Shown here piece after piece: positions 16,350 to 45,721 of a DNA stretch of 64,000 bases (position 1 is its first letter; the number at the start of each line of letters is the position of its first letter). The stretch spans positions 42,683-106,682 of the forward strand of contig CAZAXH010000002.1 of NCBI GenBank assembly GCA_964489065.1, written 5' to 3'. The stretch comes from an uncultured Planctomycetales bacterium (lineage in GTDB: Bacteria > Omnitrophota > Gorgyraeia > Zapsychrales > JANLHA01). The position numbers and the translations under genes were made by a program. The notes below the pieces were generated by a model. That model saw nothing but the letters and a program-made list of their open reading frames with translations, did not search any database and was not told the origin of the DNA.

Positions 16350-17138
16350 GTGGTCGTATTCTTTCAAATTTGTGTCGGGCTTTTTGTCGTCAGCTTTTGG
16401 GCGGGAGTCTTGGCCTATGTTCCCGCGACCTTTTATCTGCTGGTTAAGAATCCTCCTATCGTCAAAGTTGAAAAAGCCCGGCAAAAGGGCATTTTTAATA
16501 TCCACGAAGAATCCCTGTCGGAAAAGCGCAAAAAATCCCGGGTTCAAGTGGTTCTGGCCATTTACGGGATTTGCCTGCTGATCCTGGCGGTCGCTTACAC
16601 GTTTAACTGGCTGCAATTTCAACAGACGGGGGTGAACCCCTTTGATATTCTTTCCACGCTTTCGGTGATCCTGTTCTGGTTTTCGGTTCTCACGTATTGC
16701 CCGGTCGGCATTTATCTCATGCTGAAGCAGCCTTGGCGGTATAAAGAAGAAGGCGTGTGTCTGACCGGGATGTTTGTTTCTTACGGGGCCGCGATATTAT
16801 TGTTTTCGATTTTTTTCGCCTACCGCTGGCTTAAGGTCCGGGCGATTTTGGTCCAGGGGCAGGACATGATCGCTGGCGCCCTGCTGCTGATTTTTTCCGC
16901 GGCGGTCTTGTCGTATCTGCCGTTATTGATTTATGTTTTTTATAAATCTTCTCGTTTGAGTAAAGACCACACGGTTCGTTCCAGCGTGATTTTTGTCATA
17001 TACAGCGTTTGTTTTGTCCTTTTTTCAGGGCTTTTTTTCTTTGAGTGGGTTCAGGACCACATAAAGAAAGAGCAGGAACCGCCAAGCGCCGTGGCCGCTG
17101 GCGGCCTGAATTCCCGGCAGGAGTTTGCAAAGATATGA
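16350..17138 (+). CDS. Polytopic membrane protein with three internal sequence repeats
   Basis: GTG start; hydrophobic throughout; the motif L-x-Y-x-P-x-x-x-Y-L-x-x-K recurs three times (LAYVPATFYLLVKNPP / LTYCPVGIYLMLKQPW / LSYLPLLIYVFYKSS). Confidence 0.45.
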   Translation: MVVFFQICVGLFVVSFWAGVLAYVPATFYLLVKNPPIVKVEKARQKGIFNIHEESLSEKRKKSRVQVVLAIYGICLLILAVAYTFNWLQFQQTGVNPFDILSTLSVILFWFSVLTYCPVGIYLMLKQPWRYKEEGVCLTGMFVSYGAAILLFSIFFAYRWLKVRAILVQGQDMIAGALLLIFSAAVLSYLPLLIYVFYKSSRLSKDHTVRSSVIFVIYSVCFVLFSGLFFFEWVQDHIKKEQEPPSAVAAGGLNSRQEFAKI

Positions 17139-17284
17139 TTATTTTTATTGCGCTTCGGGGCATTGGTTAATATAATAACGTTGCCTTTAGGTAATATTTT
17201 AAAATACGCCTTGATTTGAAAATAACAAATTACAGCATGTTTTTTGAGCCGCCGATATTTATATTTTGAGATAAAGACAACCTG

Positions 17285-17310
17285 CTCTGATGTTCCGTCA
17301 GAGTTTTTTT
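17285..17310 (+). terminator. Rho-independent terminator-like hairpin plus T7 run
   Basis: CTCTGA-tgttccg-TCAGAG followed by TTTTTTT; it abuts the 5' end of repeat element copy 1. Confidence 0.45.
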
Positions 17311-17571
17311 ATTCAATGAGCATTTAATTTACACGACCCTAGGGAGTGTAAATTAAAAATGCGAATTGATCCTGAGGGCGAGTGAGTTAAGCGAACGAGC
17401 CGAAGGATTTTGATTTAATCCCCACGACCCTAGGGAGTGTAAATTAAAAATGCGAATTGATCCAGAGCGAGAGAGCTAAAGCGAACGAGCCGAAGGATGT
17501 TGGTGTAATACCCCGCAGTTTGCTGCGGTTCATTGAGTCCAGAGCTTGCTCTGGGGTTTGTATCTTTGATT
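17304..17571 (+). repeat. Conserved structured intergenic element, copy 1 (contains an internal ~94-nt partial tandem duplication); candidate ncRNA
   Basis: Near-identical to 27861..28038 over about 180 nt; hairpins TAATTTACAC-(11 nt)-GTGTAAATTA, CCGCAG-tttg-CTGCGG and CCAGAG-cttg-CTCTGG; long-range pairing ATTCAATGAGC with GTTCATTGAGT. Confidence 0.6.
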
Positions 17572-22904: not shown

Positions 22905-23137
22905 CGACGCGCGGCATTCCAAGCGGCGTGGGCTGGAATTGTTTCAAGGGAGGCCGTCAAAAGGCCGGGAAATATTTTTTATCCGCCTTCGCAGAAAACC
23001 GCGGGTATGGCCGTGGATGAAGGCGAGAGATTAACAAGCTCCTGCTTCAGGGATGTTCGCACGTATGTTAAGACGGCAGCTCATCCCGCGAAGCGAAGGG
23101 CTAACAGAGATGAGGCTCGTGGGCGCGGGGCTTCCTA

Positions 23138-23644
23138 ATGGCGTTACATTTTATCCTGGACGGATACAATATTATTAAAAACAACGAGAATCTGGCCGAG
23201 TTGCCGTTGGACACTGGACGCCAGAAATTGATCGCCATCCTGGAAACCCGGAGGCCGCAGGGGAGCGCGCGCAACAGAGTCACGGTTGTTTTTGACGGGC
23301 AGCCCGGCGTGGGGCCGTTTCAGTATCCCGGGCCGGTGAAGGTTGTCTTTTCCTGCGGGCAATCGGCGGACGAAAAGATTAAACATATGGTTGGGCATTC
23401 CGGGAACAGGAAGTCAATGGTCGTGGTAACCGATGACCGGGCTATTCGGTATTACGTCCGTTCGTTAGGCGCGGAGGTGTTGGGCGTCCGCGATTTCTGG
23501 CACGCCCGGCTTAACCCTCAGCCGCCACGCCAGCAGGCCCCCCGGAATCCGGGCAAGAGCATTTCCCGGGTTCAGGAAATGAGGATTACGGATGAGCTCA
23601 GCCGGATATGGCTGAAGCCGCGTCAACGGAACCATGATTCTTAA
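23138..23644 (+). CDS. YacP-like NYN (PIN-like) domain protein
   Basis: ILDGYNII...VTVVFDG...VVVTDDRAI pattern typical of the NYN/YacP (COG3688) family. Confidence 0.5.
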   Translation: MALHFILDGYNIIKNNENLAELPLDTGRQKLIAILETRRPQGSARNRVTVVFDGQPGVGPFQYPGPVKVVFSCGQSADEKIKHMVGHSGNRKSMVVVTDDRAIRYYVRSLGAEVLGVRDFWHARLNPQPPRQQAPRNPGKSISRVQEMRITDELSRIWLKPRQRNHDS

Positions 23645-27766: not shown

Positions 27767-27837
27767 GCGTTTTAAAGGCAACGTTGTTTTTGGGACCTGT
27801 GTCGCTTTAAGTGGCGCTGATTTTCAGGGAAAACATG

Positions 27838-27865
27838 GGCAGGAAGATTTCTTCCTGCCTTTTTT
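27838..27865 (+). terminator. Intrinsic terminator of greA
   Basis: GGCAGGAAGA-tt-TCTTCCTGCC, a 10-bp stem, followed by a T6 run. Confidence 0.7.
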
Positions 27866-28038
27866 ATTCAATGAGCATTTAGTTTACGCGACCCAAGGGA
27901 GCGTAAACTAAAAACGCGAATTGATCCTTCAGCACGAGTGAGCGAACGCGAACGAGCCGAAGGATGCTGGTTTAATACCCCGCAGCTTGCTGCGGTTCAT
28001 TGAGTCCAGAGCTTGCTCTGGGGTTTATACCTTTGATT
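27861..28038 (+). repeat. Conserved structured intergenic element, copy 2; candidate ncRNA
   Basis: Matches 17304..17571. The 10-bp hairpin TAGTTTACGC-(11 nt)-GCGTAAACTA differs from copy 1 by two fully compensatory pair changes (A-T to G-C twice); shared 3' hairpins. Confidence 0.6.
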
Positions 28039-28106
28039 TCCGGAAAAATTTTAAGAGACCGGATTCTGGCAGCGGGGAGTGGCTTTCAGGCAATCGCCTT
28101 GATCGC

Positions 28107-29495: not shown

Positions 29496-29951
29496 TTAAA
29501 AAGCCGTTTCCATGCTCTGGGGATTCCGGACTAGGATGATGCCGAATTGGTTCCTGCGCAGGGGCTGAAAACGAAATTTCTTGATCATAGCCCAGGCGAT
29601 TTCCGGGCGCGAGCAGTCCAGAAGGATGTATTTATGCCCGGAAAAGTTTGTGTCCAGAATGACCGGCGCCAGCATGAATTGAGCTTGGGCGAATTGCATG
29701 GCGTTTTGCTGGGCCTGGAGGTCTTTATCCGTTAGATAACCGATGGTTTCCGCGTTTTCGAGAATGTCCTGCAGGCCTGAAAACTGGAGCCCCAGAAATA
29801 TGTAGGGAGACTCCTGCCGTTTCCGGCGCGTTTGAGTATACTCTTGATAATAGTGGGTGATATTGACGGCAAGCATTCCCACGGCGGCCGTTAAAATCAG
29901 CGCGGAAGCATATCGTTTTTTTGTGCACCGGAATATTGTTCTTATGGCCAT
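29496..29951 (-). CDS. Hypothetical protein with N-terminal TM anchor
   Basis: Its stop lies 4 nt upstream of the start of the downstream minus-strand gene (operon); single N-terminal hydrophobic helix. Confidence 0.4.
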   Translation of the reverse strand: MAIRTIFRCTKKRYASALILTAAVGMLAVNITHYYQEYTQTRRKRQESPYIFLGLQFSGLQDILENAETIGYLTDKDLQAQQNAMQFAQAQFMLAPVILDTNFSGHKYILLDCSRPEIAWAMIKKFRFQPLRRNQFGIILVRNPQSMETAF

Positions 29952-30257
29952 GATGGGTTTGGGGTCCCCTGTCGGTTGAAAGAGTTTCCGGATGTATGTT
30001 CAGAAGTCGGATTATTCCGCGAAGCGAATTATCAATAGAAACCAGATGCCCGTGGGCGTGTGGTTCCATTCATGATTATTTTAATATAAAGAAGAGCATT
30101 TTCAACCCTTGACTTTAAAAAACATCGCCTTGTTTTTAAACGGTGAAAAGTAAAATAGCGCTTCCCCTGCCAGAAGAGACCTTGTATAATAAAAAAAATT
30201 TCAGGCCGGGGCGGGCCCGGCCTGGGCTGCCAGAGGGCTGTTAAAGAGGAGGATGTC

Positions 30258-45539: not shown

Positions 45540-45721
45540 TGCGGAACCCCACGCTGATAAGCGTGGCGCTTATGAATAATCCGCTTCGCGGAATATTTTG
45601 CCGTCTTCATATACGTGCGAACATCCTGGAAGCAGAAAATTTTGTTAACCTCCCGTATTGATCCGCGGGCATGCCCGTGGTTTTCTGTAAAAGCGGATCA
45701 ATGAACGGAAAGCGTTGTGCT

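Follow-up and report, generated by a model that had tools for sequence, protein, structure and literature searches.

A structured sequence that occurs twice between genes, each time directly behind an intrinsic terminator, raises the question of whether it encodes a small RNA, binds a protein or is a repeat that moves. The two copies lie in a stretch of DNA of 64,000 nucleotides, hereafter the window, from an uncultivated Omnitrophota bacterium, and a preliminary description had listed these three options, i.e., an undescribed small-RNA (sRNA) family, a small structured repeat (MITE-like) and a family of protein-binding sites. In our best reading the two copies belong to a new selfish repeat family of this bacterium and not to a new small-RNA gene, with an architecture that is BOX-like and an insertion logic that, by analogy, would be IS200/IS605-like.

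Inside the 64-kb window, blastn returned the repeat matches at E=2e-41 and 4e-21. Two ungapped blocks of 69 and 109 nt (17305-17571 vs 27860-28038) are 91% identical, copies 1 and 2 share ~89-91% identity and both lie on the + strand, as had been described. A search of the whole window with nhmmer --max did not reveal a third copy; the claim of a two-copy element holds for this window, but not genome-wide, where the family has many copies. Copy 1 is ~90 nt longer than copy 2 because of a 91-nt internal tandem duplication (17332-17422/17423-17513), which had gone unnoticed. The layout of the two copies and of their left flanks is as follows:

17284..17304, + strand: terminator hairpin 3' of the membrane-protein gene 16350-17138, GCTCTGATG ttc CGTCAGAGT (terminator scan)
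17304..17314, + strand: target tract T7ATTC, the U-tract of this terminator; copy 1 starts directly 3' of ATT or ATTC, +/-1 nt
17315..17571, + strand: copy 1, 257 nt, with left end, two 91-nt units and right end
17332..17422, + strand: internal unit 1 of copy 1, with hairpin 1 loop and 3' arm, the invariant ATGCGAATTGATCC motif and hairpin 2; anchor spacing 91 nt, direct repeat family D1
17423..17513, + strand: internal unit 2 of copy 1, tandem duplicate of unit 1, without the 5' arm of hairpin 1
27837..27859, + strand: terminator hairpin after greA, GGGCAGGAAGA tttc TTCCTGCC (terminator scan)
27860..27869, + strand: target tract T6ATTC, the U-tract of the greA terminator, unchanged at the empty site
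27869..27923, + strand: left-end long imperfect palindrome, CAATGAGCAT - hairpin 1 - ACGCGAATTG (RNAalifold on 10 full copies, inverted-repeat scan, invariant columns)
27870..28039, + strand: copy 2, 170 nt, with one unit
27878-27912, + strand: hairpin 1, TTTAGTTTACGC/GCGTAAACTAAA, within the left-end palindrome
27924..27965, + strand: hairpin 2, ATCCTTC ... GAAGGAT, with conserved loop and 3' arm GCGAACGAGCCGAAGGAT; 96% of cells paired
27980..27995, + strand: hairpin 3, CCGCAG cttg CTGCGG
27997..28003, + strand: TCATTGA, partner of TCAATGA at 27868-27874 (inverted-repeat scan)
28006..28039, + strand: right end, hairpin 4 (CCAGAG cttg CTCTGG) and T-rich tail GGTTTATACCTTTGATT(T); terminator-like, the tail resembling the target tract

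The terminator scan confirmed that both copies stand behind terminator-like hairpins of unlike sequence, with the tails TTTTTTATTC behind the 17284-17304 hairpin and TTTTTATTCA behind the 27837-27860 hairpin. By contrast, the proposals that each copy begins at the T-run, and that the element captures or replaces the U-tract, have to be abandoned: the T-run is host DNA, present at empty sites and outside the inserted repeat, and both the hairpin and T6-7ATT pre-exist there, the element lying 3' of the two. The greA site, filled in the window, is empty in L047, L048 and L050, where the terminator hairpin is identical; the empty sequence reads CTGCCTTTTTTATTC|CCGGAAAAA and the filled one CTGCCTTTTTTATTC|AATGAG...GATTT|CCGGAAAAA. 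The insertion of copy 2 is specific to the window genome and absent from a 94%-identical relative. At the copy-1 site, the window and the close relative have the element, and L054 and L056 are empty; these two keep the same hairpin and read ...CAGAG TTTTTTTATT|AT.... In a third pair, the relative has a full copy behind a truncated resident one, and the window strain lacks this full copy; this pair could be due to homologous recombination with the resident copy and not to transposition. Wherever the left end is complete (14/14 copies), the flank (T)nATT-C stands ahead of AATGAG; a hairpin abuts the T-run in ~6-8 of these 14 copies, and about half have none. The tract TTTTATTC occurs 16 times in the window, and only 2 of these occurrences are occupied.

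These filled and empty sites place the junction to within +/-1 nt. The greA site favours ATTC|AATGAG...GATTT| and requires no duplication. ATT|CAATGAG...ATT| agrees better with the other two comparisons, in which the 3 nt ATT may have been duplicated or may be a crossover core; beyond this possible ATT, the comparisons at the three sites gave no target duplication. The longer resemblance between right end and target is not a duplication, because the G of the right end is conserved (TTTGATT vs the target TTTTATT), and TTTGATT is inherited with the element, not copied from the target. Both the left flank and the right end of the element have a [T/G]ATT motif.

The family extends well beyond the window. 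At least ~17 dispersed copies are present in the 94%-identical relative, the Candidatus Omnitrophota MAG JAGOJP01 (same organism as assembly UPTA01), with the shared architecture of a left end, a unit of 89-95 nt repeated 1 to at least 4 times, and a right end. From the anchor spacing (89-95 nt), copies with 1, 2, 3, 4 and at least 4 units were recognised, copy length ranges from 170 to 390 nt, and truncated and internally deleted remnants occur as well; a solo right end at L028:7093-7164, considered as a transposon end, was rejected as one of these truncated copies. Unit number also varies at a given site, as the copy-1 site holds a one-unit copy in L003, L040 and L047-L049 of the 94%-identical relative vs two units in the window, and the orthologous copies of the L006/L059 site are an intact copy and one with 4 units and a deletion. 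In L006 a second copy follows directly behind the hairpin 4 and T-rich right end of another, and in the window strain, short-read contigs end within the element. The neighbours are unrelated housekeeping genes (among them ClpB, rpsB, Ddl, Hsp20, TonB receptor, response regulators). Among 185,579 species genomes, an exact 20-mer of the right end matched three contigs of a single MAG. In metagenomes, an exact 19-mer of the unit gave 39 matches; 19 are real element-bearing loci, of which a single assembly of the same organism contributes 18, and about 20 were discarded because the similarity did not extend beyond a chance match of 19-25 nt. The one viral-contig match to the exact 18-mer ATGCGAATTGATCCTTCA was a chance match in unrelated sequence.

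The preliminary description was thus right about a real, structured, non-coding intergenic element directly behind intrinsic terminators and, of its three options, the small structured repeat is favoured by the at least ~17 copies, the empty sites, the truncated remnants and the assembly breaks. Like a MITE, the element is small, non-coding, multi-copy and insertion-polymorphic. The target-site duplications (TSDs) or terminal inverted repeats (TIRs) of a MITE, which had been named as evidence against a structured RNA, are not present in that form, as there are no TIRs and no clear TSD. A protein-coding function was considered and rejected: the small ORF of copy 1, ATG CGA ATT GAT CCT GAG GGC GAG TGA (17359-17385), has the 8 codons that had been reported, although these had been misquoted, and its ATG is ACG in copy 2, as stated. 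The frame is not kept, the units of 89-95 nt have a length that is not a multiple of 3, and the largest copy, of 390 nt, contains no ORF of at least 70 aa.

As regards the structure, the 10-bp hairpin was found as it had been quoted (17325-17334/17346-17355 vs 27880-27889/27901-27910, with two compensated A-T to G-C changes), and the inverted-repeat scan recovered the three further helices, TCAATGA/TCATTGA, CCGCAGC/GCTGCGG and CCAGAGC/GCTCTGG. RNAalifold on the 24-row alignment, fragments included, returned hairpin 2 only, and the analysis was rerun on 10 full copies. In the predicted structures, 89-93% of cells are paired in the left-end palindrome/hairpin 1 and in the right-end hairpin 4, whose counterpart in copy 1 was called terminator-like by the terminator scan. 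The 3' arm of the left-end palindrome is the most conserved motif in the family. The long-range helix TCAATGA/TCATTGA has 89% of its cells paired and, on the + strand, two positions fixed as G.U; it encloses the body of the element, in competition with the left-end palindrome.

Taken together, we consider it highly probable that this is a mobile, non-autonomous repeat family that targets terminator T-tracts. That it moves specifically by an HUH single-strand mechanism is a more doubtful proposal, which we hold tentatively, and the full explanation, in which the two are blended, appears somewhat better than an even bet. Each member combines a palindrome at the left end with one, several or at least four tandem units of 89-95 nt and a right end that has two hairpins and a T-rich tail. 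New copies enter in one orientation, directly 3' of (T)nATT(C), which in these genomes is as a rule the U-tract of an intrinsic terminator; that terminator stays intact, with the element between it and the next gene. Movement would involve single-stranded DNA and an HUH-type enzyme acting in trans, in a way similar to the 'peel-and-paste' of IS200/IS605, and this enzyme would read the top-strand sub-terminal hairpins and a short cleavage motif, for which [T/G]ATT is a candidate. Unit number would change via slippage or unequal recombination, copies would decay via truncation and internal deletion between similar hairpins, and any effect at the RNA level would be secondary, on read-through transcripts, e.g., as extra 3' structure or as a back-up terminator.

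On the side of the enzyme, Pfam searches of the 39 ORFs flanking the copies did not reveal a transposase, and the best tblastn match to a Y1 TnpA/RAYT in 526 kb of sequence had E=0.16, with approximate IS608, IS200 and RAYT queries. An autonomous partner beside or between the copies in L006 and L028, and among 30 further neighbours, was also considered and rejected, all of these being ordinary host genes. The top strand of the element lies on the G-rich replication strand at 19 of 20 loci, and the skew is of the replication type, because opposite-strand genes keep its sign. This bias would be consistent with a single-strand mechanism, as would the wobble pairs, which favour the + strand. Nevertheless, 86% of the ORFs share that strand and the terminator T-tracts are oriented too, so that replication strand and gene orientation are confounded; no more than two loci are informative in this respect, L010 speaking for the replication strand and L022 against it.

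The conserved hairpins might instead be the reason why the copies are kept, as small-RNA genes or cis-acting 3'-UTR/intercistronic RNA modules under selection on RNA structure, whose many paralogues would affect mRNA stability, termination or targets in trans; we judge this to be quite unlikely. The helices are indeed strongly kept, with 91% of cells paired vs 37-45% in slid controls, the G.U wobbles are concentrated on the sense strand (54 G.T vs 15 A.C cells, with three fixed wobble positions), 13 of 17 copies point the same way as the upstream gene, the 3' hairpin with its T-rich tail is terminator-like, and folding against shuffles gives z ~ -6. However, folding is as good on the minus strand as on the plus strand (copy 2, z=-6.1 on the + strand and -6.9 on the - strand; copy 1, z=-5.7), and this 'RNA' structure is not constant, because hairpin 1 has no 5' arm in the extra units. 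The covariation that had been called a classic signature of selection on secondary structure becomes much weaker over 24 copies, in which a single base pair covaries repeatedly, A-T/G-C in hairpin 1 (GC:10, AU:7, GU:2); the second compensated change is limited to copy 2, the remaining helices are simply conserved, and what is essentially one column may go back to a single inherited event. Moreover, the upkeep of hairpins is equally expected from transposase recognition of single-stranded DNA and is therefore no argument for an sRNA. The surroundings do not support an independent sRNA gene either, with 0 promoter-like sites on both strands around both copies and an intact terminator with a 6-7 U tract upstream of the element. 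At gathering thresholds only a tRNA passes in an Rfam search of the whole window, and the best matches of the two copies at E<=10 reach 10-20 bits vs gathering scores of 36-100, in agreement with the earlier remark that the element could not be matched to a riboswitch, 6S, SRP or tmRNA consensus. Copy number, insertion polymorphism, unit-number variation, remnants and unrelated neighbours are the pattern of a selfish repeat. The least probable explanation is a host feature at the DNA level, namely arrays of binding sites (GCGAATTGATCC / GCGAACGAGCC direct repeats) for a nucleoid-associated or regulatory protein, spread by recombination. It would fit with ATGCGAATTGATCC, the best conserved unbiased segment and nearly invariant in 24 copies, with the related motif GCGAACGAGCC that follows ~36 nt further on in every unit, and with the tandem multiplication of the units. 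Yet ATGCGAATTG is accounted for by the left-end palindrome CAATGAGCAT, of which it forms the 3' arm; GCGAACGAGCCGAAGGATG served as the search pattern, which inflates its conservation; the neighbouring genes have no common function; and a site that the host requires would not be expected to be present in one and absent from the other of two genomes that are 94% identical.

Different ways of moving can also be envisaged. In a classical cut-and-paste MITE, mobilised by a DDE transposase, ATT would be a 3-bp target duplication and CAAnG...CnTTG short degenerate terminal repeats. ATT is found at both junctions in most copies, two of the three filled/empty comparisons fit 'ATT + CAATGAG...CCTTTG + ATT' exactly, and size, copy number and intergenic position are typical of prokaryotic MITEs (PMC3049150). 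We nevertheless rate this as very unlikely, as the greA pair fits better without a duplication and the triplets differ, left vs right, in both copies where they can (L028a, ATC vs ATT; L022, ATT vs ATA). In addition, the inverted-repeat scan of copy 2 gave no TIRs at the termini, only internal hairpins and TCAATGA/TCATTGA, whose right arm lies 36 nt inside the right end; the true termini, CAATGAGCAT vs AATCAAAGGT (reverse complement), match at ~4/10 positions. TIR elements do not usually insert in strictly one orientation at a target that is itself asymmetric, and no DDE transposase was found among the 39 flanking ORFs. Site-specific recombination by a recombinase of the tyrosine, serine or IS110-like DEDD type, guided by RNA or DNA, is rather improbable as well; here an excised circle with a junction like 'hairpin + T-rich tail + ATT' would recombine with terminator tails at an ATT core. 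The right end (hairpin 4 and GGTTTATACCTTTGATT) does resemble the target (terminator hairpin and TTTTTTATT), ATT is common to both junctions, one copy has entered immediately after the right end of another, and insertion is orientation-specific without TIRs. The argument is, on the other hand, one of resemblance only. A hairpin is missing from about half of the occupied sites, an ATT core implies one additional substitution at the greA junction, and no recombinase gene was found among the 39 flanking ORFs. Somewhat less improbable, although still unlikely, is an undescribed class of 'terminator-homing' elements, in which a trans-acting enzyme would read a folded terminator-like hairpin with its T-rich tail, the right end would be a mimic of the site, and 91-nt modules would be added. 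If this were true, the site mimic would allow nesting and tandem arrays, and the 3' UTRs and intercistronic stretches of an uncultivated phylum would receive a programmable number of structured 91-nt modules, which would in turn affect termination and mRNA stability.

The mobile T-tract repeat that we favour can be compared with several known systems. The BOX elements of Streptococcus pneumoniae (boxA - boxB(n) - boxC) are intergenic, have a highly base-paired predicted structure and a strain-variable number of modules; folding of the internal modules is largely independent of the ends, and the terminal inverted repeats are similar to those of ISSpn2 (PMC3049150). The likeness is one of architecture only, i.e., fixed 5' and 3' modules around variable tandem internal ones, here 1 to at least 4; our element belongs to an unrelated host phylum, has longer units, no TIRs at its termini, and a defined T-tract/terminator target that it occupies in almost a single orientation. 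SPRITE, also pneumococcal, resembles a Rho-independent terminator, is enriched just 3' of genes, and its hairpin and U-rich tract may terminate transcription (PMC3049150). The right end of our element is terminator-like too; however, SPRITE is a single long terminator-like hairpin, whereas our element sits behind the host terminator and has three further hairpins and tandem units. According to PMC4596501, the BrickBuilt MITE of Porphyromonas gingivalis is species-restricted and intergenic, with ~19 copies that contain a minisatellite, and with leader and tail subunits around a variable tandem array, as here; it has 23-nt repeats and small inverted-repeat ends, in contrast to the ~91-nt structured units without TIRs of our element. 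REP/BIME sequences share with it a high copy number, palindromic repeats in extragenic positions after genes, composite variable arrays and a proposed Y1 HUH movement, but our element is a 170-390-nt composite of four different hairpins in constant order and orientation, and no RAYT-like match was found in 526 kb with the approximate queries. A REP is a single palindrome of 20-40 nt whose 5' tetranucleotide is conserved; REPs form inverted pairs and flank the gene for RAYT. RAYT (TnpA-REP), a Y1 HUH enzyme, is the proposed mobiliser of these sequences (PMC8266576).

The closest parallel for insertion comes from IS200/IS605 and its non-autonomous derivatives (PATE-type MITEs), which likewise have no TIRs, no clear TSD and sub-terminal predicted hairpins, insert precisely 3' of a motif that is kept on the left flank, and leave a seamless empty site; they also use one replication strand, with which the confounded strand bias of our element would be consistent. 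In our element, sub-terminal imperfect palindromes are predicted at both ends on one (top) strand, and the 14 left-complete copies are precisely inserted 3' of the motif, with seamless empty sites. It differs in that no TnpA/TnpB partner was found here (526 kb, approximate queries), and its apparent target is longer and T-rich, (T)nATT(C), vs a tetra- or pentanucleotide such as TTAC or TTGAT. IS608 has a guide tetranucleotide 5' of each hairpin; here the left palindrome starts at the very terminus and a guide 5' of the hairpin is thus not evident. TGAGC and TGAGT are found 5' of hairpins 1 and 4, and ATTC and ATTT at the junctions, which is suggestive of an IS608-like guide pairing, although a convincing equivalent of the guide tetranucleotide was not demonstrated in this element. 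To our knowledge, internal tandem units are not a feature of PATEs. Insertion of IS608 relies on top-strand sub-terminal palindromes and takes place precisely 3' of a short left-flank motif, with precise resealing of the donor (PMC5934647), and elements of the IS608/ISDra2 type target the lagging-strand template (PMC6006769).

For these Omnitrophota genomes, the family accounts for short-read assembly breaks at particular intergenic sites, and its presence/absence and unit number provide a strain-level marker; it also carries the warning that the copies should not be annotated as sRNA genes. It adds one more family of interspersed repeats to a phylum known only from metagenomes, with a mix of features atypical of textbook MITEs, namely no TIR/TSD, tandem modules like those of BOX, and T-tracts of terminators as the place behind which it inserts. 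Should its mobilising enzyme be identified, the family could show a mobile element that uses terminator tails as safe landing sites, and whether the added hairpins affect read-through transcripts.

The intergenic repeat, recognised on the + strand by sequence reading and a repeat scan, occurs twice in the window, and no third copy was detected in the 64 kb by nhmmer with filters off. The two copies share 91% identity over ungapped blocks (blastn within the window, E = 2e-41 and 4e-21), and a tandem duplication adds about 90 nt to copy 1. Each is preceded by a terminator-like hairpin, different in sequence in the two cases, and then by TTTTTT(T)ATTC. The features considered here are:

17139-17283: non-coding stretch (about 145 nt) from the stop of a membrane-protein gene at 17138 to the start of the terminator hairpin at 17284, conserved in the relatives L054 and L056
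17284-17314: terminator with T6-7AT(T/C) tail before copy 1; same tail at this site in L054 and L056
17305-17571, +: repeat copy 1 (element proper from 17315)
17332-17422 and 17423-17513: tandem units of copy 1, period 91 nt
27837-27869: terminator with T6-7AT(T/C) tail downstream of greA; same tail in L047, L054, L056 and L058
27860-28038, +: repeat copy 2 (element proper 27870-28039)
22960-23140 (+), 29900-30080 (+) and 45540-45720 (-): three copies of a second, unrelated intergenic repeat family

The second family is about 150-170 nt long, with a mean column identity of 73% over its three copies and a conserved core ...CGCACGTATGTTAAGACGGCA..ATTCCGCGAAGCGAAT...GCTCGTGGGCGTGGGGTTCC; it has no Rfam match at gathering score.

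The preliminary description took the element for a two-copy one, but it belongs to a multi-copy family. Logan contigs, assembled from short reads and otherwise identical to the window, end inside it on both sides, the effect of a genomic repeat on the assembler. In a scan of 185,579 species, one genome each, an exact 20-mer of the right end matched three contigs, all from the MAG Candidatus Omnitrophota JAGOJP01 (the 94% relative), in which L003 is the orthologous copy-1 locus, with flanks 93-95% identical and one unit versus two in the window. An exact 19-mer of the unit retrieved 39 metagenome-contig loci; the element is present in 19, and 18 of these come from a single activated-sludge assembly, UPTA01 (about 7x coverage), of the same organism as the MAG (matching contigs L040 = L003, L022 = L004, L033 = L005). 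Once contig-end fragments were paired, at least about 17 distinct sites were counted in this few-Mb genome, a lower bound since the scan demanded an exact word. Each copy contains 1, 2, 3, 4 or at least 4 units, repeating every 89-95 nt; some copies are 5'-truncated (L013, L006a1, L028:7093-7164), others carry internal deletions between two similar GCTTGC hairpins or between GAGCCCA and GAGTCCA (L028c, L006b), and L006:10047-10116 is a remnant. The flanking ORFs are unrelated host genes, with no transposase among the 39 examined.

Orthologous loci, retrieved via GreA homologues, were then compared for presence and absence of the element, and a third comparison came from a locus around an ARPP-1 gene. 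With a slash marking the junction, the greA site is empty in the 94% relative, ...GGGCAGGAAGATTTCTTCCTGCC TTTTTTATTC/CCGGAAAAA, and filled in the window, ...CTGCC TTTTTTATTC/AATGAGC...CCTTTGATTT/CCGGAAAAA, where 170 nt (27870-28039) were gained without duplication. At the copy-1 site, the window and the close relative both carry the element, and two more distant relatives (L054, L056) have an empty site that reads ...CTGCTCTGATGACCCGTCAGAG TTTTTTTATT/AT.... At the ARPP-1 locus, a truncated copy ends with ...CCTTTTATT/AGTTTCG in the window strain; in the relative, this truncated copy is followed by a complete extra one, ...CCTTTTATT/CAATGAGC...CCTTTTATT/AGTTTCG. These three comparisons indicate that the element is mobile now or was so recently, and that hairpin and T-tract belong to the host; being already there at empty sites, the terminator U-tract is not captured or replaced by the element, as had been supposed. 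The right-end TTTGATT, though similar to the target TTTTATT, is inherited with the element, as its conserved G shows, and such a right end can itself serve as an insertion target.

Both strains have element copies on either side of the ARPP-1 (PF20208) gene (L006:7340-9344, L059:1-1612). The structure of these copies differs between the strains: four units with a deletion as opposed to an intact right end on one side, and a truncated plus a full copy as opposed to a truncated one only on the other. In the relative, the tandem copies at L006:7340-7629 share the private variants GAGTCGCAGGATATTGATTTCATGCC, TTCAGTGAG and GCTGTCTC, absent from the orthologous truncated copy of the window strain, a pattern suggestive of gene conversion, or else of recombination involving a circular copy.

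In each of the 14 copies whose left end is complete, (T)nATT-C precedes AATGAG; about 6-8 of these have a hairpin adjoining the T-run. The window contains only two sites in which a hairpin abuts T≥6ATTC, both occupied, and 16 occurrences of TTTTATTC alone. In several related Omnitrophota genomes the terminators of the orthologous genes all carry T6-7AT(T/C) after the hairpin, which suggests a lineage-typical terminator tail exploited by the element.

As to structure, the preliminary description had quoted hairpin 1, the 10-bp hairpin of the left end (17325-17355 and 27880-27910), exactly right, with two compensated differences between the window copies, and an inverted-repeat scan recovered its three further helices; its covariation claim stands only in part. 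In an alignment of 24 copies, each collapsed to one unit, a single pair, in hairpin 1, shows repeated two-sided change (GC 10, AU 7, GU 2); the second compensated change is private to copy 2, and the other helices show conservation, not covariation. Standard pairs fill 91% of helix cells versus 37-45% with slid partners, a control biased by the derivation of the structure from the same sequences. Folding against shuffled controls gave z of about -6 for both strands; among non-Watson-Crick cells, G.T exceeds A.C on the + strand (54 vs 15, with three fixed wobble positions), so the + strand is the best-folding one, as RNA or single-stranded DNA. RNAalifold on ten full copies gives the left end as one extended, imperfect palindrome, CAATGAGCAT - hairpin 1 - ATGCGAATTG. 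The family's best-conserved unbiased motif, ATGCGAATTGATCC, is thus the 3' arm of this palindrome, which in the predicted fold competes with the long-range helix TCAATGA/TCATTGA.

By crude ORF calls, 13 of 17 upstream genes and 15 of 20 downstream genes have the same orientation as the element. An unusually strong GC skew (0.10-0.17 over 3-64 kb) is seen in the whole window and in loci L006-L042; opposite-strand genes retain its sign, so the skew follows replication strand and not coding strand. The top strand of the element is the G-rich one in 19/20 loci; however, since about 86% of ORFs of at least 120 aa lie on that strand (same regions) and terminator T-tracts are gene-oriented, replication strand and gene orientation are inseparable explanations here.

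The element, which is non-coding, multi-copy, insertion-polymorphic and variable in unit number, and which inserts, always the same way round, immediately 3' of a T-rich motif, usually a terminator tail, is a selfish interspersed repeat family and not a novel structured sRNA; very probably it is mobile and targets terminator T-tracts. An independent sRNA gene is unlikely, given the absence of a promoter-like site around both copies, the position behind an intact terminator and the variable architecture; Rfam, the check first proposed for the element, gave no family, whether gathering scores or a permissive E ≤ 10 was applied. As for the mode of insertion, the junction is fixed to ±1 nt (ATTC/A...ATTT/ in one comparison, ATT/C...ATT/ in two), and site-specific recombination at an ATT core is possible. 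A DDE element that duplicates 3 bp of target is also possible. The three comparisons show no target duplication beyond a possible ATT, and two copies whose left and right flanking triplets differ speak against this one as well.

The mechanism favoured, at less than even odds, is mobilisation of the element in trans by an HUH-type single-strand transposase. IS608 recognises sub-terminal palindromes on the top strand, inserts precisely 3' of a short motif kept on the left flank and precisely reseals the donor (PMC5934647), and IS608-type elements use the lagging-strand template (PMC6006769); by analogy, all four traits appear mirrored here. The left flank [T]ATT resembles the last bases of the element, [G]ATT, which would fit a single mode of recognition for both cleavages. 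Against the HUH mechanism, the apparent target is longer than a tetranucleotide and the left palindrome begins at the terminus; no HUH-type enzyme was found in the about 0.5 Mb searched.

In architecture, the element comes closest to BOX of pneumococcus (boxA-boxB(n)-boxC), in which module number differs from strain to strain (PMC3049150), and the BrickBuilt MITE with its internal minisatellite (PMC4596501) is another likeness; REP/BIME and SPRITE are alike in genomic location. A classical MITE is defined by terminal inverted repeats (TIR) and target-site duplication (TSD), whereas the inverted-repeat scan found no TIR at the true termini and there is at most a possible 3-nt ATT duplication; the defining features of REP/RAYT are likewise lacking. 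Closest in insertion logic are the IS200/IS605 family and its small derivatives, with which the element shares predicted hairpins and target, but not their most important mark, a cognate TnpA, within the same 0.5 Mb. A full-text search returned no relevant literature on Omnitrophota intergenic repeats.

Any read-through transcript would include the hairpins together with the terminator-like right end, and its termination or stability may plausibly be affected as a secondary consequence. As a new repeat family, the element has uncommon traits, namely homing to terminator tails, the lack of TIRs and of a clear TSD, and structured modules in tandem.
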